A DNA stretch of 64,000 nt from an uncultured Planctomycetota bacterium (lineage in GTDB: Bacteria > Planctomycetota > Planctomycetia > Isosphaerales > Isosphaeraceae). This document shows positions 2,889 through 22,224 of this stretch, one piece after another. The notes under the pieces are model-generated. The model was given only the letters and a program-made list of their open reading frames with translations, was not told where the DNA came from and did not search any database. Location of the stretch: contig CAWGMQ010000010.1 in the NCBI GenBank assembly GCA_963823665.1, positions 672,001 to 736,000 on the forward strand. The letters are read 5' to 3'. Position 1 is the first letter of the stretch, and the number at the start of each line of letters is the position of its first letter. Made by a program: the position numbers and the translations under genes.

Positions 2889-2945
2889 GGCGGTGCGTGT
2901 CAGATTTCGGCGCCTCGTGTGTATAGGTTGCCGGGAGGTCAATCC

Positions 2946-6721
<3,776 letters not shown>

Positions 6722-6794
6722 ACCGCTGGTGCTCGCGCCCGATCAATTGAATCGTGTCAATTCCATCTCACGTCGTTCGTCAGGAGTGATCGTC

Positions 6795-8093
6795 ATGATC
6801 GCCGCAGTTGGTCTGGGCCTGCTGGGACTGGTTCTTTGCCAGGCGCCGCGCGGTGCTGACTCGAGCCAGTCACCACCGGCTGCGGCGGCGCCGGCAGCGG
6901 CTGCACCGACAGACACCACGCCGGGCGCGTCAAAATCATGGAATTTCAAGACAGGAGCAAGCATCAAGACCATCGCCTGTTCGGAGGACGGCAAGCTCGT
7001 CGCTGTCGCGAATGGTGATCCGACGATGAACATGCTCGAAAATGGAACGAGCCGGCTCAAGGACGACTGGAAGCCGTCGGTGGAAATCCTGGACGCCCGG
7101 ACGGGGAAGACAGTCGCAGTTCCAAAGCTCACGACGGTTGCTGAAGATCTGGTGCTTGGGGCGACTCCACGATTCGAGGTCACGGCTCTCGCCTTTTCGC
7201 CCGATGGCAAGGTCGTGGCAGTCGGGACGAGTATTGGCCAGGTGAAACTGTACGACGCGCGGACCGGCGCGCTTCTTCGATTACTGGACGATCGCGCGGC
7301 AAAACTTGCGGACACGAAGACCCCGGAGAACTGGAAGTCGCTCGAGCGGGCGATGGGAAGCATTGCGTCATTGACGTTTTCGCCTGACGGCCGCCAGTTG
7401 GCCACGTGCGGCGGCTCGTTTGGCGACTTCTCTCGCGTTTTCGACAAATCCGAACGGTTGGACGAGCGGAGCACAGGCCCCGGCCGGCTCAAGATCTGGG
7501 ACGTGAAGACCGAAACGCTCAAGCATGATCTGGTCGGGCATAGCCACGCGAGCGCGCTCGCTTTTTCTCCGGATACGCGCTTGCTCGCCAGCGCCGGAAG
7601 CTGGCTGAGTGACGCAGAAACCGGGACCGGCGTGGTCATCTGGGATGCACAGACTTTCAAGAAGCTTCGCATTGTTTCGATCGAGGCGAACGGCGGTACC
7701 GATTCGGTCGCATTTTCCCTCGACGGCAAACTGATGGCGATGAGCTCACGTCATTTTGACAAAGACAAGGTGAGCGACCCAGGCACGAGTATCATCAGCC
7801 TGGCAAACGTCGGGTCGGGCATTGTTGAGTGGCGAAGAACACTCCCCGGTTGGGCAAAACCCGTGGCATTCCAGCGCAATGCCGTCTTGACGCTGACCGG
7901 CGGACAATTGATGCCGTTCCTGGAACTGAAGACGGGGAAGACGCTGTTCAGGATCAAGCGATCGGCCGACCCTCGCTACGGCGGACGCTGGAACGATTTC
8001 GTGATCGTGAAACAAGGCCAAATGTGGGTGACCGTTGGACAGGATTCCGACGGAAAAGGGACCGTCGGAATTATTGATCCCGATGGTCCTTGA
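6795..8093 (+). CDS. Kinase-less paralogue of the kinase ectodomain: TM/signal, Pro/Ala linker and WD40-like beta-propeller
   Basis: GGAG then ATG at 6795 (MIAAVGLGLLGLVL). Long near-identical blocks shared with the second propeller of the kinase (TIACSEDGKLVA, HDLVGHSHAS). Confidence 0.85.
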   Translation: MIAAVGLGLLGLVLCQAPRGADSSQSPPAAAAPAAAAPTDTTPGASKSWNFKTGASIKTIACSEDGKLVAVANGDPTMNMLENGTSRLKDDWKPSVEILDARTGKTVAVPKLTTVAEDLVLGATPRFEVTALAFSPDGKVVAVGTSIGQVKLYDARTGALLRLLDDRAAKLADTKTPENWKSLERAMGSIASLTFSPDGRQLATCGGSFGDFSRVFDKSERLDERSTGPGRLKIWDVKTETLKHDLVGHSHASALAFSPDTRLLASAGSWLSDAETGTGVVIWDAQTFKKLRIVSIEANGGTDSVAFSLDGKLMAMSSRHFDKDKVSDPGTSIISLANVGSGIVEWRRTLPGWAKPVAFQRNAVLTLTGGQLMPFLELKTGKTLFRIKRSADPRYGGRWNDFVIVKQGQMWVTVGQDSDGKGTVGIIDPDGP

Positions 8094-8171
8094 ACCGCTG
8101 GTGCTAGCGCCGCATCAAGGTCGCTGTGTCTTTTCTTCTCGATTTCACGTCGTTCGTCAGGAGTGATCGTC

Positions 8172-9494
8172 ATGATCGCCGCACTCGGTCTCGGTCTGCT
8201 GGAAGTGGTTTTTTGCCAGGAGCCGCGCGGTACTGATCCGAGCCAGACTCCACCGGCTGCTGCGGCGCCGGCCGTCGCGCCAGCAGCGGCTGCACCAGCA
8301 GAAAACACGCCCGACTCGTCAAAATCATGGAGTTTCAAAACGGGAGCGCGCATCAGGACCATCGCGTGCTCCGAGGACGGCAAGCTCGTTGCTGTCGCCA
8401 ATGGTAATCCGACGATGATCCTGCTCGAAAATGGAACGAGCCGGGTCAAAGACAACTGGAAGCCGTCGGCGGAAATCCTGGACGCCCGGACGGGGAAGAC
8501 GGTCGCCGTTCTGAAGCTCACGACGGCCGATGAAGACGCGGTGCTCGCGGCGACCGAGCGCGTCTCCCACTTCGAAGTAACGGCTCTCGCGTTTTCGCCC
8601 GACGGCAAGCTCGTGGCGGTTGGGACGAGCATCGGCCAGGTGAAACTCTACGACGCGCGGACTGGCGAGCTCTTGCGATTGCTGGACGATCAAGCGGCGA
8701 AACTTGCGGCCAAGAAGACTCCGGAGAACTGGAAGTCGCTCGAGCGGGCGATGGGAAGCGTTGCGTCATTGGCGTTCTCGGCCGACGGCCACCAGTTGAT
8801 CACGTGCGGCGGCTCGTTCGGCGACTTCTCTCGCGTTTTTGAGAAATCCGAACGGTTAGACGAGCGGCGCACAGATGCCGGCCGGCTCAAGGTCTGGGAT
8901 GTGAAGACCGAAACGCTCAAGCATGATCTGGTCGGGCACAGCCAAGCGAGCGCGGTCGCTTTTTCGCCGGATGGGACCGTGTTCGCCAGCGCCGGAAGGT
9001 GGCACAGCGATGCCGAATCCGGTACTGGCGTCGTCATCTGGAGCGCCGGCACTTTTGCGAAACTTCGTACCGTTTCGATCGAGGCAAACGGCGGAACTGA
9101 TTCGGTTGCATTCTCGCCTGACGGTAAACTGATGGTAATCAGCTCGCTGAATTTTGAAAGAGATAAGCTGGACGATTCCGGCACGAGCATCATCAGCCTG
9201 GCAGACGTCACCTCGGGCGTCGTGCACTGGCGGCGAACGAAGTCCGGCGGGCCGGAGCCGGTGGCATTCTATTCTGGCGCGGTCCTGGCGATGGGCGACC
9301 GCGGCCAATCGATGTGGCTTTTTCAGATCGAGGCAGGAACGATTTTGAGCCAGCTCACTCGAGCGGCCGATCCTGTTCCAGGCGGAAGATGGAACGATTT
9401 CACGTTCGCGAAACGAGGCTGCATGTGGGTCATCGGCGGCGAGGATGCTGACAAAAAAGGGACCATCGAAGTCATGTACCCTGAAGGTTCGTGA
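8172..9494 (+). CDS. Second kinase-less paralogue: TM/signal, linker and WD40-like beta-propeller
   Basis: Same TCAGGAGTGATCGTCATGATCGCCGCA start context and same propeller blocks, with a diverged C-terminus. Confidence 0.85.
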   Translation: MIAALGLGLLEVVFCQEPRGTDPSQTPPAAAAPAVAPAAAAPAENTPDSSKSWSFKTGARIRTIACSEDGKLVAVANGNPTMILLENGTSRVKDNWKPSAEILDARTGKTVAVLKLTTADEDAVLAATERVSHFEVTALAFSPDGKLVAVGTSIGQVKLYDARTGELLRLLDDQAAKLAAKKTPENWKSLERAMGSVASLAFSADGHQLITCGGSFGDFSRVFEKSERLDERRTDAGRLKVWDVKTETLKHDLVGHSQASAVAFSPDGTVFASAGRWHSDAESGTGVVIWSAGTFAKLRTVSIEANGGTDSVAFSPDGKLMVISSLNFERDKLDDSGTSIISLADVTSGVVHWRRTKSGGPEPVAFYSGAVLAMGDRGQSMWLFQIEAGTILSQLTRAADPVPGGRWNDFTFAKRGCMWVIGGEDADKKGTIEVMYPEGS

Positions 9495-9783: not shown

Positions 9784-10339
9784 CCGCCGAAGCAGTGGCC
9801 TGTTGGCTTTGCGGGGAGAGATTATGTCTCCCACGGGATTCGCTCGAGATGGTTCAGCCAGTAGTGAATATGCGGACACTTCGCCCGAATTGTGGGTAGT
9901 CCAATGTACGCTGCGATATCCGGTCCTGCCGATGAATTACGACCCTCGTATTCAGGAATTAGCGCGATAATCCGCTTGGAGGGGGCTGTCTCCCTTCCAT
10001 CGTTGATGTGTTCAATGCCTGGTTCGGACGCCGCAATGCGGTTCAGTTCCTGAATTTGCTCTTCGCAGTTCTCAAATGACCGTCGAAATGCTTCAGGATC
10101 ACTGAACAATTGCTTCATGAAGCACGAGGTTCGGAATGAATCGGTAATAATTGATGTCCGAGCCAAACGCAGATTCGAGGGCCGCGACGTAGATAGTCGG
10201 GTTGGCCCGGTCCCTCAGATTTACCGCCTTTCCCGGAAAGTCATCGGGCAAACCGTAGACGTCAAAAAATGTTGTGAAATAAACGTTCTTCCCCTGTCGA
10301 CCCTTGATGGTGTTCTGAATGAACTTGCCGACCCCTTTA

Positions 10340-10487
10340 GGAACGGGCCGGAACCAAATTCCGTCGATTTACGTGAAGTGCGCCGCGGAGCGGCACAAAG
10401 ACCGTTCCGACGCAGAGCGTCGGAACGAGGGCTTTCCGTCGTGGTAGGATTGAGACCGAAATCGGGAAGTTATTTCCGGCCTGTTCC
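10340..10487. mobile_element. 148-bp MITE with 14-bp terminal inverted repeats and a TTA target duplication
   Basis: Left end GGAACGGGCCGGAA, right end TTCCGGCCTGTTCC (one mismatch). TTA at 10337-10339 and 10488-10490. Removing the element plus one TTA restores the DUF4276 frame. Confidence 0.85.
10403..10427. repeat. REP-like palindrome inside the MITE
   Basis: CGTTCCGACGC-AGA-GCGTCGGAACG, a perfect 11-bp stem. Confidence 0.7.
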
Positions 10488-10658
10488 TTAGCGCCACCAT
10501 ACTTCTTCTTGGTGCCCAAGCCGTACACGTGGTGGTGGTCTTTTGCACCAACCGCCAAAGTGTGGATCAGTCCGTCACCTTGAGGGAATAGAAACGGCTG
10601 CAACAACTGCGTACAGAACCCCTGCTCCGTCGCCCCTCACAGAAGACGTTGAGTTGCT

Positions 10659-11774
10659 TCAAGGCAAAGGGCCTCCTCCAACGACGTTTGGCTGCCACAG
10701 CTCGCCAATCGAGTAGTCTTCCAACCAGTCCTTGAGCTTGTCGGGGTCGAGCCGTTCGAATGTGGTTCGCCCGTTCTGGCATTCAACAGTAACAATCTCG
10801 GCCGGCTCAAAGAAATCGAGAAACGTCTGCGATTGAGTCGCCACGATGACTTGGGTCTTCTCCGCCGCTGCGCGCATCAAGCCTGCGACGATTTCCAGGG
10901 CGTGCGGGTGCAACCCAAGCTCAGGCTCGTCAAGAATCAGCACCTCGGGCAGAAATTCCTCCGGTTGGAGGAACAACATGCAGAGAGCCATCGCCCGGAT
11001 CGTACCATCTGAAATCTGGTGCGCTCCAAAGAGGTACTCAAAGCCTCGCTTACGCCAGTCTAAGATGATTTCGTTCGGATTGAGGCGACTCGGACCCAGA
11101 TCGAAATCGCCAAACTCTGGTAGTACCTTCCGCATCGTAGAGACGATTCGGTCGTAGACCATCGGAAAACGCTCCCGATAGCCGTAAAGCATGGCAGAGA
11201 GGTTGCCCGCATCCGGCATCAACGACCGGTTGTCGTTTATGTAGCAAAAATTTCGAATCCGAGCGCTCGGCGAGGTGTCGTGAAAGTGGTAGACGCGGCA
11301 GTCATTCAGAATGCGCCGGAAGGCTTTGGCGGTATCGTTGCCTTGGATCGCAAGCTCTACGATTCGCGTTTCGGCGTGGCCTGCTCCCAGCGACATCGGG
11401 GGCCGATGCGGACCGGACCAATCATGCTTCGTGTAGTCAAGAGACTCGTCTGCAAACAAAAGAACGTCGTTGGCCGCATGAAAAAGCCGCATGTGATAGG
11501 TGTCGAGGACATCGCGCTCCTCGAATTCCAGTGTCGCTTCCAGTTGCGGCGTCACCTTCGGTCCAAAATGAAGAGCCGAATAACCCCGGCCCGTCTTGCC
11601 GATGTATTCTTGCAGCCGCCCTCCCATCATCTCGTTCAGCATTTTGAAGAACGAGACGAAATTGCTCTTACCAGCACCGTTGGCCCCGATCAACACGTTC
11701 AGTCTGGTTAGATCGAGACTCGCATCCTTGATGGAGCGGTAGCCGTTGATCTCAATCTTTCGTAGTATTGCCAT
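10659..11774 (-). CDS. AAA_21 / SMC-like ABC ATPase
   Basis: GYRSI N-terminus, Walker A GANGAGKSN, signature ISDGT, Walker B ILDEPELGLHP and VIVATQS. Confidence 0.92.
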   Translation of the reverse strand: MAILRKIEINGYRSIKDASLDLTRLNVLIGANGAGKSNFVSFFKMLNEMMGGRLQEYIGKTGRGYSALHFGPKVTPQLEATLEFEERDVLDTYHMRLFHAANDVLLFADESLDYTKHDWSGPHRPPMSLGAGHAETRIVELAIQGNDTAKAFRRILNDCRVYHFHDTSPSARIRNFCYINDNRSLMPDAGNLSAMLYGYRERFPMVYDRIVSTMRKVLPEFGDFDLGPSRLNPNEIILDWRKRGFEYLFGAHQISDGTIRAMALCMLFLQPEEFLPEVLILDEPELGLHPHALEIVAGLMRAAAEKTQVIVATQSQTFLDFFEPAEIVTVECQNGRTTFERLDPDKLKDWLEDYSIGELWQPNVVGGGPLP

Positions 11775-12038: not shown

Positions 12039-12290
12039 ATGATCAACGTAACTTACGGCAAATTGGACAGAGTCCTGCGTACTCTCGGATTCTCCTGCCG
12101 GACAGCAAACCTGCAGTCGGAAGCCTTCGTTTATGAGCACCAACATACCGGAGCGGTCGTCATCCTCCCGGCGGCGGCGGATCGTAAGAAGGCCTTGCCG
12201 CAGCACGTCGCGGCTGTGCAGGCGACACTCGCGGAGTATGAGATCGCCGACCCTCTGGCCCTTGCCGGGGAGCTGCAAAAGGCGAATTAA
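12039..12290 (+). CDS. Small hypothetical protein, possibly HicA-like
   Basis: AGGA then ATG at 12039. VTYGKLDRVLRTLGF...YEHQHTGAVVILP pattern recalls the HicA dsRBD-like fold. Confidence 0.45.
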   Translation: MINVTYGKLDRVLRTLGFSCRTANLQSEAFVYEHQHTGAVVILPAAADRKKALPQHVAAVQATLAEYEIADPLALAGELQKAN

Positions 12291-13153
12291 TCATCCCTCG
12301 ACCACCGCCGCGGCGGCGTCACTTCAAATTTGCCAGAAGGAGGGCTGAACCGGATGCCCATCTTCCAGAGCAGATCGGGCTGATGCTTGGCCAGCAGGTA
12401 TTTCATGACGACTTCGTCCGAGGGAGGCATTCCCGGATCCTGGAAGACCACGCACAAGCTCGCGACGGCGCGACGGGTCTTGGCGTCCCAGACTTCGAGC
12501 AGGCCGTGCGGGCGCCTCGGGATGCGATAGTACTTGTCGCCCGAGAGCACCGTCAGGCAGTCGAACTGGCAGAACTCGTGGAATTCCTTGGGCTCGACGA
12601 CGTTGCGCACCAGCTCGGCGGCGACCAGCTCGGGCACGCCGTCAGAATAGTTCGTGGCGTCGAGCCGCATCGGCTCGACCTCGTTCGTTGGCTGCGGCTG
12701 GCTCTTGCCTTCGATGACGCGGAAGATCTCCCACGCCACCAGCCGGGCATAACCGGCTCGCAGGGCAGGGCTGGTGATGACAAGCTGCGGGAACGAAGCC
12801 GCAGCACGCACCACTTCGGTGGCGAAGGCGGCTGCTTCGCGCTGAAGCTTCTCCATCCAGTAGCGCGGCATGCCGCCACGATCGCTTTCGGAGTAGCGAA
12901 ACGGCCGCGGGCCGACGTCGGGAATTCGCACGTCGATCTCGCCACCGTCCCGCTCAAGCGTTCGGAGCACCGCGTCGTACGCGCCCTCGCCGCGCACGAA
13001 CCGCTCGGCCGCGTCGGCGTGCCGCGTGTGCTTGATCCGGACGGTTCGAAAACTGGGACGGGCCAGAAAAATCACTTCACGCGACCGCTCGTCGTCGCGG
13101 CTACGAATGTCCTGGACGTCGATCTCCCAGCGCAGGTATCCCGTGCGGATCAT
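12287..13153 (-). CDS. Hypothetical partner of the small GG protein, with a C-terminal domain YYRI..LCVV..P..D..K.LL
   Basis: Its ATG (13153) overlaps the TGA of the upstream small gene (ATGA), indicating translational coupling. GC3-rich codon usage. Confidence 0.75.
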   Translation of the reverse strand: MIRTGYLRWEIDVQDIRSRDDERSREVIFLARPSFRTVRIKHTRHADAAERFVRGEGAYDAVLRTLERDGGEIDVRIPDVGPRPFRYSESDRGGMPRYWMEKLQREAAAFATEVVRAAASFPQLVITSPALRAGYARLVAWEIFRVIEGKSQPQPTNEVEPMRLDATNYSDGVPELVAAELVRNVVEPKEFHEFCQFDCLTVLSGDKYYRIPRRPHGLLEVWDAKTRRAVASLCVVFQDPGMPPSDEVVMKYLLAKHQPDLLWKMGIRFSPPSGKFEVTPPRRWSRDD

Positions 13154-13392
13154 CTGACCGGCCCGCAACCCCCTTGAATTGCCGGAACGATCAGAATTTC
13201 ACCCGCCGTCCTGTCGAACTGGCGAATGGGCGACGTGCGCCCCGGCCCGTCGAGGCGGAATGCCAAGCGGCCGGCAGTGAAATGCTCCGAGAAGGCGAGC
13301 TCGGCGGCCGCGACCGTTTCGGGAGCGTCCTTGTCCCACTCGGCCAGCGTCAAGTCGCCATGCCCTGTCTTGAGGAGTCTGAGCTTCGCCAT
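13150..13392 (-). CDS. 80-aa protein ending VPAIQGG-CGPVR (ubiquitin-like / sulfur-carrier-like candidate)
   Basis: Strong RBS GGAAGGAG before the ATG. Size and a terminal hydrophobic strand followed by GG fit a beta-grasp-type modifier. Confidence 0.7.
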   Translation of the reverse strand: MAKLRLLKTGHGDLTLAEWDKDAPETVAAAELAFSEHFTAGRLAFRLDGPGRTSPIRQFDRTAGEILIVPAIQGGCGPVR

Positions 13393-13831
13393 GACAAGAG
13401 CACTCCTTCCATCGCCCTTGAAGAGTTCGCCTCGAAAAAAGCTTCACCGCGCATCTCTTTGATCGGCCGGAAGCCCCGCGTTTGATTGGCTCACTTCGGC
13501 GGGGAACGACCGAGAAGCCGATCATAATCGAACATCCCGATCCCGGCCACCCTGTTCGCTCCGGAAGGCGTTAAGGCTTAGCCGGGGCTGGTTTTCGCAC
13601 CCTTCGGTGGTCCCTTGGATTTGGGCCGGCGCTTGCCGAACGTGCCCCGGAAGATTTTGCCACGCTTGGAACGCCTGTCACCTTTTCCCATCTGGTTCAC
13701 TCCGAAATATCGTAGTAGACGTTTTTCGTAATTCGCTTGAGTTTCGGCTCTTATCCGATTAGGATAATGAAATCACTGACGTTTGTCGTTTCCCGGACAC
13801 GTCGTCGCTTCCGACGGGAGGAGCTCCGAGT

Positions 13832-19418: not shown

Positions 19419-20529
19419 ATGCCGAAGCTTGTCCACAAACGACCTGCCTACAGTCACCACAAACAATCAAATCGCGGCCGCGTTTGCATCGGGGGAAAAT
19501 ACCACTACCTGCCCGGTGCCTACGACTCGGCTGAGAGCAACGCCGCGTACTGGGCGTTGATCCATCGGCTCGAGAAGGGCGACGTCGTGGACGACGAAGC
19601 GAAGGGCCAGGCGGTCGAAGCTGGCCAGGTGGAGGAGCTCGGATGCGCCACACCTCCTGACGGTGGCGGAGCTGGTCGAGAAGTATGACAAGTATGCGGA
19701 GGGCTACTATCGCCAGTACGGTGAGCCGACAGCCGAGCGCCTCACGATCAAATACGCGATCCAGCCAGTGTTCGACACGCCGCACTACAAGCTTCTGGTT
19801 TCCGAGTTCAGGCCTCGGCACTTGAAGGACGTCCGGAAGGCCATGATTGAACGGAATTGGAGCCGGCGGCACATCAACGCATCCATCGGCCGGTTTCGGC
19901 GGATGTTCGTGTGGGCGGTGGAGGAGGAGTTCTGCTCCGAGGAGGTCGCGGGTGCGCTCATGATGGTGAAGACCCTGCGCGAAGGGCGAAACCCCGCGGT
20001 GCGCGAGAAGGCGGAGGTCAAGGCCGTCTCGAATGAGAATCTGGAGAAGATTCTCCCCTTCGTTTCGCGCGTCGTGGCGGATGTGATCGAGTTCATGCGG
20101 TTGACCGGCTGCCGACCGGGTGAGGTTGAGCGCGTGACGGTCGAAGATATCGACAAGAGCGATCCAGAGTGTTGGAAGTGCGTCATGCTTCGGCACAAGA
20201 CCGCCTACCGCGGCAAACGCCGCACGCTGCACTTCAACCCCAAGTGTCAGGCCGTCTTGACCCGTTGGATCGTCAAGGCGGGCTCTGGGCAGGTGTTTCC
20301 GCTCACGCTGGATGGATTGCAGACGGCAATTTCACGGGCTTGCCATAAGGCTGGCCTCGAGCGCTTTGGACCGAACGCGATTCGACACTTGGTCGGCACT
20401 GAGGCACGGAAAAAGACCGGGCTCGAGGGCGCCCAACATTTGCTTGGCCACGCTAGCGCGAGCACGACGGAAATATACGCTGAGCTGGACGAAGAAAGGG
20501 CGCGCACCGTCGCGCTGGCGATCGGTTAA
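19419..20529 (+). CDS. Tyrosine recombinase / integrase (frameshift at ~19650)
   Basis: N-terminal arm-binding-like PAYSHHKQSNRGRV. Catalytic motifs TGCRPGE, HKT, NAIRH, LLGH and TTEIY. Joins ORFs 19419..19688 and 19663..20529. Confidence 0.9.
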
Positions 20530-20637
20530 TATTGGGTCGACGGCCGGGAGTAGCTACCCGGCTTTAGAACAGCCTCGCGGCGATCACTCCCCTATGGTGT
20601 TCGCCGCGTGGTCTGGTCCCTACATAGGGAGTTCGTC

Positions 20638-21132
20638 ATGGGCATTTCGTTTGAGAAGATTCGGTCGCGAACCAAGTCGGGAGACGGCCTCCGGCGCGAG
20701 AAGCTCGAAGCGTTCATCGCCGAGGTGGACGCAGAACTAAAGTTCATGGCATTTCAGTTCACGGCGCTCGGGATGATCCTGAACCTGCCACATACCGCCA
20801 ATGATCCCGACCAAGCCCAGACGGCCTACGCGGACACGCTCGCGATGCTCAATGAGGTTGAGCGACGGGGCGGCCTCGAGTCAATCTACAGTCGGGCCGT
20901 TGAGTTGCTTGGCCAAGTCGAGGCGCATGAAAGCGTCCCCTCGCGCCGGCGAACCAACAAGGGGGCTGCCGGAAAACACCAGGATCTTGGCGACGGCCTC
21001 AAGGCGATTCGTACCCGATTGGAATATCTCATTGGCGCGTACCCGGAAATTAAGAAGACGCTCGATCGTTATTCTGGCGGAAAGTTCGCTCTTGGGAAGG
21101 TCACGCTAGTTACTGACTTGTGGGGGGATTGA
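20638..21132 (+). CDS. Hypothetical helical protein
   Basis: GGGAG RBS before the ATG at 20638; co-oriented with the integrase. Confidence 0.55.
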   Translation: MGISFEKIRSRTKSGDGLRREKLEAFIAEVDAELKFMAFQFTALGMILNLPHTANDPDQAQTAYADTLAMLNEVERRGGLESIYSRAVELLGQVEAHESVPSRRRTNKGAAGKHQDLGDGLKAIRTRLEYLIGAYPEIKKTLDRYSGGKFALGKVTLVTDLWGD

Positions 21133-21156
21133 CTTTTCGTTACCCCGTGTTAGTAT
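21129..21156 (+). promoter_or_regulatory. Putative sigma70-type promoter for the replication operon
   Basis: TTGACT-N16-TAGTAT upstream of the excisionase-like / primase genes. Confidence 0.4.
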
Positions 21157-21309
21157 CAAGTCGATCCCGTTATCTTTGTCAGATAACGCGGAGTCACGTC
21201 GAGTGATATGAGACCGGCGAGAGGCCGGCTGTCGTTCGACCCGACCGTCCCCTGCGAGCCAGGTGGGGCGGGAAGGGTCACGCAGCCTTCATGCCTTGGA
21301 GCCGGATAG

Positions 21310-21543
21310 ATGAATCCCGCAACTGAGACGCGATCCGCAGAATGGATCACCGGCGCAGCCGCGCGCCACATTCTGGGACGATCCGCCACGGTTCTGCAGC
21401 GCGCTGCAATGTTGGGCCAGATCCGCGTTGCGCTCGATCCCGGCATCCCGCCGCGCTACAACCGCGATGATGTCCAACGGCTCGCGCAGGCCTCGCCGTG
21501 CGCCGAATCCCGCAATTCTCGCGGGGAGCTCCAGCCATCATGA
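21310..21543 (+). CDS. Excisionase-like winged-HTH protein
   Basis: WITGAAARHILGRSATVLQR...PRYNRDDVQRL, a MerR/AlpA-like pattern. ATGA overlap with the next gene. Confidence 0.6.
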   Translation: MNPATETRSAEWITGAAARHILGRSATVLQRAAMLGQIRVALDPGIPPRYNRDDVQRLAQASPCAESRNSRGELQPS

Positions 21544-21845
21544 GCGTCACGGCATACCTGCGCCCGGCGCAGGCGGCAAAAGTCTGGCCGCACACTGGCC
21601 GGCCGCCGCATCCATCAAAAATCGTCCGCGCGATAACTCCCGGCACGAGGTCAATCACCCGTCCGGGTGAGCGGATCAAGCTGCGCGCCATTCGGGACAC
21701 GCAGGGATGGTTGACCACCGCTGAGTGGATCACCGATTTTATCGCCGCGGTGACACTGGATCGGGGCGGCACAAAGCCTCAGCGAAAACTAATCGAGGCC
21801 CGTGCGGAAGATGCGCGAGCCAGGTTAATGGCGAGTGGGTGGTGA
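21540..21845 (+). CDS. DUF1580-like DNA-binding protein
   Basis: AAKVWP..GRPPHPSKIVR...IKLRAIR..GWLTTAEWITDFI, a pattern typical of planctomycete MGE DUF1580 proteins. Confidence 0.6.
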   Translation: MSVTAYLRPAQAAKVWPHTGRPPHPSKIVRAITPGTRSITRPGERIKLRAIRDTQGWLTTAEWITDFIAAVTLDRGGTKPQRKLIEARAEDARARLMASGW

Positions 21846-21849
21846 AGGG

Positions 21850-22224
21850 ATGCCCGCCACGGTTGCACCCGTTGGCGGGCTCGAGTGTTCAACGGAGTCT
21901 TACGAGATGGATGATACGCCAGCAGACAAGCCGACTACAAGACCGCGCCGGCGGACGCATCGTCGCGACAGTGTGGCTAAGAAGTGTGACCACGTGCGAG
22001 CCCTGGCGCTGGTCGCGCTCGACTTGTGGTTGTGTTACTACGGGGCGGGCCCGAGTCAGGTCATAGACCACATGCTTCGGACCCTTGGCGGCGACCAGGG
22101 CGATGAGAAGCTAATCGAGGCAATCTCTCAGGCCGCGCGTCGATGGGCGAAGCGAAGGGGTAGCTACAAGGATTCCGACGCTGACATCATCGTTCGGATC
22201 GCACGGAGGGACGCCGGAAAATGA
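21850..22224 (+). CDS. Hypothetical protein
   Basis: Packed in the operon; ATGA overlap with 22221. Confidence 0.55.
   Translation: MPATVAPVGGLECSTESYEMDDTPADKPTTRPRRRTHRRDSVAKKCDHVRALALVALDLWLCYYGAGPSQVIDHMLRTLGGDQGDEKLIEAISQAARRWAKRRGSYKDSDADIIVRIARRDAGK

Follow-up and report, generated by a model that had tools for sequence, protein, structure and literature searches.

What does a bacterium do with an 80-residue protein that ends just beyond a di-glycine and is encoded directly upstream of a 288-residue partner bearing a conserved cysteine and aspartate? The two genes lie in a 64-kb stretch of DNA (the window, 64,000 nucleotides in full) from an uncultured planctomycete of the family Isosphaeraceae. 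They form a real, undescribed and very widespread two-gene module, which, judged from sequence comparisons and structural models, looks like a minimal protein-tagging system. We give an even chance to the reading that the pair consists of a ubiquitin-like modifier (Ubl) and a minimal E2-like acceptor, which together borrow an E1 and a peptidase in trans.

The original prediction had described an 80-aa GG gene with a strong ribosome-binding site, whose stop codon overlaps the start of a 288-aa gene, and had quoted several motifs from the C-terminal domain of the partner. Both reading frames were recovered on the minus strand, the TGA of the small gene overlaps the ATG of the partner (13151-13153, ATGA), the AAGGAG is in place, and the quoted motifs, including Cys234 and Asp246, are present. 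The parts of the locus, with the basis of each assignment, are as follows.

13150..13392, minus strand: small Ubl gene, 80 aa; the protein ends ...AIQGG-CGPVR
13403..13408, minus strand: ribosome-binding site AAGGAG, 10 nt before the ATG of the small gene (sequence)
13168..13392, minus strand: 75-residue beta-grasp core, ending in Gly74-Gly75 (AF2 model, fold matches, GG conservation)
13168-13173, minus strand: GG codons of the small gene
13150..13167, minus strand: five-residue extension past GG, with the stop codon; lineage-specific, probably trimmed
12287..13153, minus strand: whole partner gene, 288 aa (reading frame and homologues)
12659..13153, minus strand: N-terminal domain of the partner, residues 1-165 (alignments, dN/dS, profile matches to cell-type proteins only)
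12344..12643, minus strand: C-terminal domain of the partner, residues 171-270 (AF2 model, fold search, predicted complex)
12452..12454, minus strand: Cys234, invariant, candidate thioester-forming residue (distant relatives, predicted interface)
12416..12418, minus strand: Asp246, invariant, in a PP(S/T)D motif where a helix begins (distant relatives, predicted interface)

A single promoter-like site (13681-13654) is at chance level, with 1 found against 0.5 expected. In four soil metatranscriptomes (share 0.05), contigs of relatives span both genes; these contigs are mostly less than 95% alike and therefore do not demonstrate transcription of the window locus. Several other features of the window can be recorded here. 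An 83-aa reading frame on the plus strand (12039-12290), possibly HicA-like, converges with the partner gene such that the two stop codons share one TTAA; it matched no family and is not conserved as a neighbour. On the minus strand, positions 9822-11774 hold an AAA_21/AbiEii-type ATPase, weakly like MADS3, and then an apparently broken partner reading frame, in a region whose G+C lies below that of its flanks. The plus strand at 2919-9494 encodes a Ser/Thr kinase and, after it, several WD40-like modules that nearly repeat one another and are split over four reading frames, and at 19663-22200 an integrase-like frame, presumably of the tyrosine type, precedes short phage-like genes at the possible edge of an integrated element.

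Searches returned 555 and 563 homologues of the two proteins, which carry hypothetical-protein names and several of which come from Isosphaeraceae. Of 121 genomes of this family, 112 have the partner and 111 the small gene, the latter in every case alongside the partner; this corresponds to 44 of 47 high-quality genomes and 50 of 53 genera. One genome has the partner at a contig edge with no small gene found, and nine have neither gene, three of these nine being at least 92% complete. Second matches were only pieces of the same locus or lay on small contigs, so the pair appears to be single-copy. The genes are adjacent and in the same order in 53 of 55 distinct loci examined; in the other two, one lies at a contig end and one (G353) has the genes 14 kb apart. 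Gaps of 6-669 nt separate the genes in 51 of the 53 adjacent pairs and overlap is confined to the genus of the window, for which reason translational coupling through the ATGA was rejected as a family trait. No third conserved gene stands beside the pair over 37 bacterial loci, whose flanks vary by lineage. Comparison with seven relatives gives dN/dS values of 0.035-0.14 (small gene) and 0.02-0.19 (the two halves of the partner), with dS partly saturated; the pair is under purifying selection. Outside the family, a phylum-wide sample of 300 other genomes contained the partner twice, both times in one distant family, where the proteins are 28-35% identical and the small protein ends at GG; downstream of these two loci lies a different Cys-rich reading frame (L002, 1921-2202; L003, about 1990-2310). 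High G+C favours Gly codons, and neither protein has a family annotation; even so, the idea of a chance GG or a reading-frame artefact can be dismissed for practical purposes in view of hundreds of homologues, dN/dS below 0.2 and linkage that extends from bacteria to phages. The pair, which is also present in the cultured genera Singulisphaera, Paludisphaera, Tautonia and Aquisphaera, is thus a core, chromosomal and selected locus of a culturable bacterial family. Being core and single-copy, it is more suggestive of housekeeping or regulation in Isosphaeraceae than of a mobile defence island.

The beta-grasp fold implied by the original prediction for the small protein is borne out by modelling. 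AF2 predicts the 75-residue core with a pLDDT of 91.5 and the order strand-strand-helix-strand-strand-strand. Foldseek found nothing at E 0.001 in the PDB, its best match being the Ras-association (RA) domain of RalGDS (E 0.0098, probability 0.97). A wide fold search with VIA returned mostly beta-grasp or ubiquitin-like domains, MoaD, TtuB, SAMP and bacterial Ubls at Z 3.2-4.3 (best match Z 4.3, rmsd 3.1, 64 aligned residues), all below a Z of 8 and hence in the range that the tool calls common. Individually weak, these matches are coherent as a set and suggest a beta-grasp. The terminal GG, whose invariance is central to the original prediction, has no exception among 236 database homologues.

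The residues after GG behave differently. They had been put forward as a pro-tail, with the suggestion that the partner might cleave after GG and/or transfer the small protein by ATP-independent transpeptidation. As a family feature the pro-tail does not hold: 175 of the 236 homologues stop at GG while 61 have a tail, viral copies never reach past the GG position (0 of 18), and of 81 genome loci, 64 have a stop codon directly after GG and 17 a sense codon. Most homologues therefore have no bond after GG that could be cleaved to power a general ATP-independent transfer. Tails have arisen many times, the 70 distinct examples being 1-29 residues long and unrelated in sequence. The CGPVR of the window recurs in three other database proteins and so is not a sequencing error; a genome of the same genus (G329; L004/L055) has a 29-residue tail, shifted by one base after GG relative to the window, possibly through an assembly error. 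Of the 70 distinct tails, 59 begin with G, A, S, C or T (84%, against 43% at later positions), as do 39 of 50 once kin are collapsed by their first two tail residues, figures for which the set of small residues was picked post hoc from the tails and in which relatives are not independent. P, D and E never occupy this first position, although they make up 23% of later ones. Such a constraint is expected from a peptidase cutting after GG and suggests trimming; on these alignments the tail is tolerated and probably trimmed, not required. Neutral loss of the stop codon is disfavoured as a source of tails, since its transition products, CGA and TGG, occur in none of the 17 sense codons after GG.

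Repeatedly acquired tails that are constrained at their first position would also suit a partner that is itself a cysteine peptidase or transpeptidase of the Ubl, trimming tails, removing the Ubl from conjugates or transferring it without ATP. We consider this unlikely. In the 175 homologues and all 18 viral copies that carry nothing past the GG position, transpeptidation would have only the Gly-Gly bond available, and trimming could equally be done by a host JAB peptidase. The architecture of the partner bears on the same point. Its C-terminal domain is predicted with a pLDDT of 92.5; in the model, two helices precede a four-strand meander that terminates at the Cys, after which come a loop and a helix that begins at the Asp motif. 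No peptidase fold is among its fold matches, nor is it rhodanese- or MoaE-like, and an invariant His is absent across the wide family, His216 and His257 being conserved only among close relatives. Instead, the top five VIA matches are RWD-type chains (Z 5.6, 5.0, 5.0, 4.8 and 4.3; the best with rmsd 2.9 over 83 aligned residues), below which stand FANCL, UBE2O, UBE2S and a bacterial E1-E2-Ubl chain, with E2 chains at Z 3.0-3.2, again under the Z of 8 noted above. Other approaches gave less: Foldseek against the PDB found nothing at E 0.001, re-examination of its top 1000 matches (pdb_via) yielded no E2 lead and reached Z 3.7 at best with unrelated chains, and hhalign against 22 E2s of the host family stayed at the level of a reversed control, with a probability of 0.2% and E 0.26. 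The partner has no HPN motif, its Cys lying at the end of the fourth strand, and no UQ_con or Pfam profile match. That this domain works like an E2 is thus weakly suggested by the models, a fair lead that falls short of saying that it is an E2.

The N-terminal domain (165 residues) is a separate conserved region with a dN/dS of 0.04-0.15. Its profile matches only cell-type proteins (8 clear matches among the 150 listed representatives, with no viral reading frames), distant partners having Thr/Ser/Asn-rich N-termini in its place, and sequence searches of the PDB and Pfam gave no match. It is a candidate target-binding part.

The C-terminal domain reaches much further. Its profile matches 1245 clusters at 50% identity, and 143 of the 150 matches listed cover the domain. 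Among these are 131 distant relatives, about 20-35% identical, and every one of them keeps both Cys234 and Asp246; the weight that the original prediction had placed on the two residues is thereby justified. Their invariance also speaks for the peptidase alternative. Eighteen viral loci (contigs of 10-494 kb, near-duplicates included) were retrieved, solely via two phage-type sub-alignments, so the sample is biased; with the window protein as query, no viral locus was found. In all 18 a small-protein homologue lies upstream of the partner, 15 times directly and 3 times with one gene between, and the co-occurrence of the two genes therefore extends to distant bacteria and to phages, as the original prediction would have it. 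The viral small proteins end in GG in 14 loci, AG in 1, PG in 1 and PS in 2, and in the four without GG the partner keeps its Cys and Asp. In the phage clade L072-L074 the small protein, ending in PG or PS, carries a long N-terminal extension that resembles a partial repeat. A Zn-ribbon gene lies further upstream of the pair in 17 of the 18 viral loci (L075-L089, L072-L074). In an unrooted tree of the domain (61 rows, 108 columns), cell-type rows stand apart from the viral rows sampled, but the tree does not show which way transfer went.

Named families and annotated sequences contributed little. Neither protein of the pair matches a family in Pfam, NCBIfam or PHROGs, sequence searches of the PDB gave nothing under E 0.05, and the ESM Atlas, queried with homologues, returned unnamed clusters only. 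Four of five tblastn searches of plasmids and annotated phages had no match, and the fifth found two phage records, all hypothetical. One of 147 relatives of the C-terminal domain (P0391-type rows) matches Pfam DUF7737 (E 0.004). A search of BFVD with the C-terminal model found a 397-aa protein of Agrobacterium phage Atu_ph07 (E 0.0023, TM 0.62), itself uncharacterised, which, judged from this model, is possibly a copy in a cultured jumbo phage.

We then turn to whether the two proteins are likely to bind. The C-terminal domain and the tail-less Ubl gave a complex score of 0.78, against 0.01 for the best of three controls; of solved pairs, 116 of 157 reach the mark used for this score, as do 2 of 215 mismatched ones, counts that apply roughly with the alignments used. 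At least 95% of contacts are shared between runs, and the partner pLDDT is at least 87. The predicted interface, of about 100 contacts, involves Ubl residues 69-75 and partner residues 234-243 and 245-246, and so contains both the GG tail and Cys234. Phe237 pairs with Ubl residues 71-72, and from this register Gly75 would be expected to face Cys234; the 25 best-resolved contacts listed do not include Cys234-Gly75 itself. In the model, the helix that follows the Cys lies packed against residues 45, 53, 67 and 69 of the Ubl, an arrangement that we take to resemble the closed form of E2~Ub. PDB sequence searches found no sequence-similar solved complex, and the score may come in part from a general likeness to E2-Ubl complexes. 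The interaction anticipated by the original prediction is thus supported at the level of modelling. With GG and Cys conserved and the genes occurring together, none of the computational outcomes that it had named as counting against it was observed.

Docking of the tail beside an invariant Cys and Asp again suits the peptidase alternative. The large predicted interface, together with RWD domains as the best fold matches, would also fit a partner that merely binds the Ubl in a stable complex or traps it as a dead-end thioester, whether to regulate it or to divert E1 or JAB enzymes of the host or of rivals as a decoy, and the viral clade that retains the pair without GG agrees with it. We regard such a non-transferring pair as quite unlikely, because Cys and Asp are invariant over very long distances, the free GG is strongly conserved, and single-copy core status in cells is a poor fit for a phage decoy.

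If the pair conjugates, as in our preferred reading, an E1 has to come from elsewhere. The original prediction had noted that no recognisable E1, E2, JAB, MoaE or ThiG lies nearby. For the neighbourhood this stands: a regular-expression search of the 64-kb window found no ThiF-, JAB- or E2-like reading frame, none of 37 bacterial loci has an E1 linked to the pair, and no MoaE or ThiG gene recurs beside it across them. It does not extend to the host, whose genome encodes four ThiF-family, three JAB and two UQ_con genes, all on other contigs. Two sets of these genes lie in eukaryote-like Ubl-E2-E1-JAB operons that have tailed Ubls of their own (G000:C4:2467000-2475200 and C4:2702300-2706400; L101 and L102). 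A ThiF-family E1 is present in five of five other carriers tested and JAB in four of five; with ThiF genes also in 12 of 14 control genomes, ThiF is near-universal and its presence in carriers is weak support for E1 use. UQ_con genes occur in 106 of 121 Isosphaeraceae genomes and in none of eight of the genus g287, which keeps the pair, and dependence on the canonical E2 operon of the host was rejected on that account. In each of three g287 genomes tested there are two ThiF-family genes and a single JAB, so any E1 used there would be a housekeeping MoeB/ThiF.

Hosts carry a MoeB-rhodanese-type E1 and a JAB beside cysteine synthase, which would also agree with a sulfur relay, that is, a Ubl acting as a thiocarboxylated, ThiS/MoaD-like carrier whose sulfur the partner Cys donates or accepts for cofactor, tRNA or DNA modification. 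The GG end and the presence of MoaD, TtuB and SAMP among the fold matches are in keeping with this. Set against it, the small protein has no ThiS or MoaD family profile match, the partner resembles neither rhodanese nor MoaE, no conserved sulfur or cofactor gene was found in the 37 bacterial loci or seen in the viral loci read, and the MoaD/CysO-like carrier of the hosts sits in its own operon. A sulfur relay is accordingly distinctly unlikely in our view.

Among five phage records, two (close kin) have ThiF and JAB genes 65-75 kb from the pair and three have no ThiF or JAB match. In these jumbo-phage records, the ThiF-family and JAB genes lie about 3 kb apart (G421:C1:30300-33750, G422:C1:35700-39760), with no Ubl or partner homologue in the 11-12 kb around them. 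The three records without ThiF or JAB, and the lack of a linked E1 or peptidase in bacterial and viral loci, fit a partner acting as its own peptidase. A more far-reaching possibility is self-sufficient conjugation without an E1, in which Cys and Asp would form an acyl-enzyme with the Ubl by exchanging a peptide bond at its tail, the N-terminal domain would choose the target, and a phage-borne module would have become a family-wide core modification; we rate this, too, as rather improbable.

We therefore retain, at the even chance given above, the reading of a Ubl with a minimal E2-like acceptor. Computed fold type, invariance, linkage, core status, selection, E1 and JAB genes in trans and predicted binding are its basis; trimming, E1 use, the thioester, transfer and the roles of Asp246 and the N-terminal domain are its conjectural steps. 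The small protein would be a Ubl modifier whose tail past GG, where present, would be trimmed by a peptidase, which could be a host JAB or the partner itself. The free Gly75 would be adenylated by an E1 of the ThiF/MoeB family whose gene lies elsewhere. The C-terminal domain of the partner would bind the sheet and tail of the Ubl and take it onto Cys234 as a thioester, in the manner of a stripped-down E2, Asp246 may aid the attack by the target amine, and the N-terminal domain may pick the target. Since the pair occurs in cultured genera, its chemistry and target can be tested in a real host, unlike those of copies in uncultured phages.

How does such a pair compare with known systems? No description of it was found in the literature, with supplements (for example of PMC1779556 and bioRxiv papers) and most subscription papers beyond the scope of the search; PMC12660748 and PMC9503650, in their accessible parts, are unrelated to it. 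BilABCD (Ubl, E2, JAB deubiquitinase (DUB), E1) is alike in having a beta-grasp Ubl with a terminal Gly, sometimes pre-processed, and a Cys-bearing acceptor, and according to the accessible text it needs the DUB to expose the Gly and the E1 for conjugation (10.1101/2023.09.26.559546). Both pair proteins weakly resemble chains of 8tyz (Z 3.2 and 3.3). Unlike BilABCD, the pair comprises two genes only, with no E1 or DUB in the locus and no sequence likeness, and whereas BilABCD is a host defence operon, the pair is core and chromosomal in cells and is carried by phages. Bub likewise combines a diverged bacterial Ubl and E2 with non-canonical chemistry; as described in the part of the source available, it works through oxyester intermediates and has its own E1 and peptidase, whereas the pair has an invariant Cys and neither of these genes (10.1101/2024.11.21.623953). 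The operon types covered in the accessible text of PMC1779556 all include E1-like or JAB genes. An E1 and a peptidase in the same operon, the arrangement looked for in a comparison with Bil, Bub and the type-6 operons of Iyer 2006, were found neither in the 37 loci nor, by motif search, in the window. The eukaryote-like Ubl-E2-E1-JAB operons mentioned above occur in the same hosts and have Ubls with short tails past the terminal Gly, but are unlinked to the pair and unrelated in sequence.

The partner shares with UBC/E2 and RWD domains (PF00179; 4y1l_C, 7e2k_A) a helix, a four-strand meander and a helix. In canonical E2s the Cys lies about ten residues before the Pro that precedes a helix, and so does the Cys of the partner. 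It differs from UBC/E2 in its size of about 100 residues, the lack of HPN and of a profile match, and Z values of 3-5.6, and from RWD domains in that these have no Cys. The available text of PMC1779556 describes RWD domains as catalytically inactive adaptors with an E2 fold and notes that some bacterial E2-like families also lack the His.

ThiS, MoaD, SAMP and Urm1 share with the small protein the beta-grasp and a free GG, and the pair, like them, would need a ThiF/MoeB E1 in trans, for which SAMP/UbaA is a precedent. They differ in that the pair matches none of their families and has a Cys/Asp partner in place of ThiG, MoaE or cysteine synthase. Pup/UBact is an unstructured tag that ends in GG-Glu/Gln; membership in this group was rejected, given a folded Ubl model and a first tail residue that is Gln in 3 of 70 and Glu in 0 of 70 tails.

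New here are the core Isosphaeraceae locus, its purifying selection, an N-terminal domain without a phage counterpart and the constrained tails. To our knowledge, bacterial systems known to conjugate Ubls are defence operons of patchy distribution that encode an E1 of their own. A Ubl with a minimal Cys acceptor, spread over more than 1200 distant clusters and shared with large phages, would open a new branch in the chemistry of Ubls, and the pair would be a candidate for a primitive or reduced E2.
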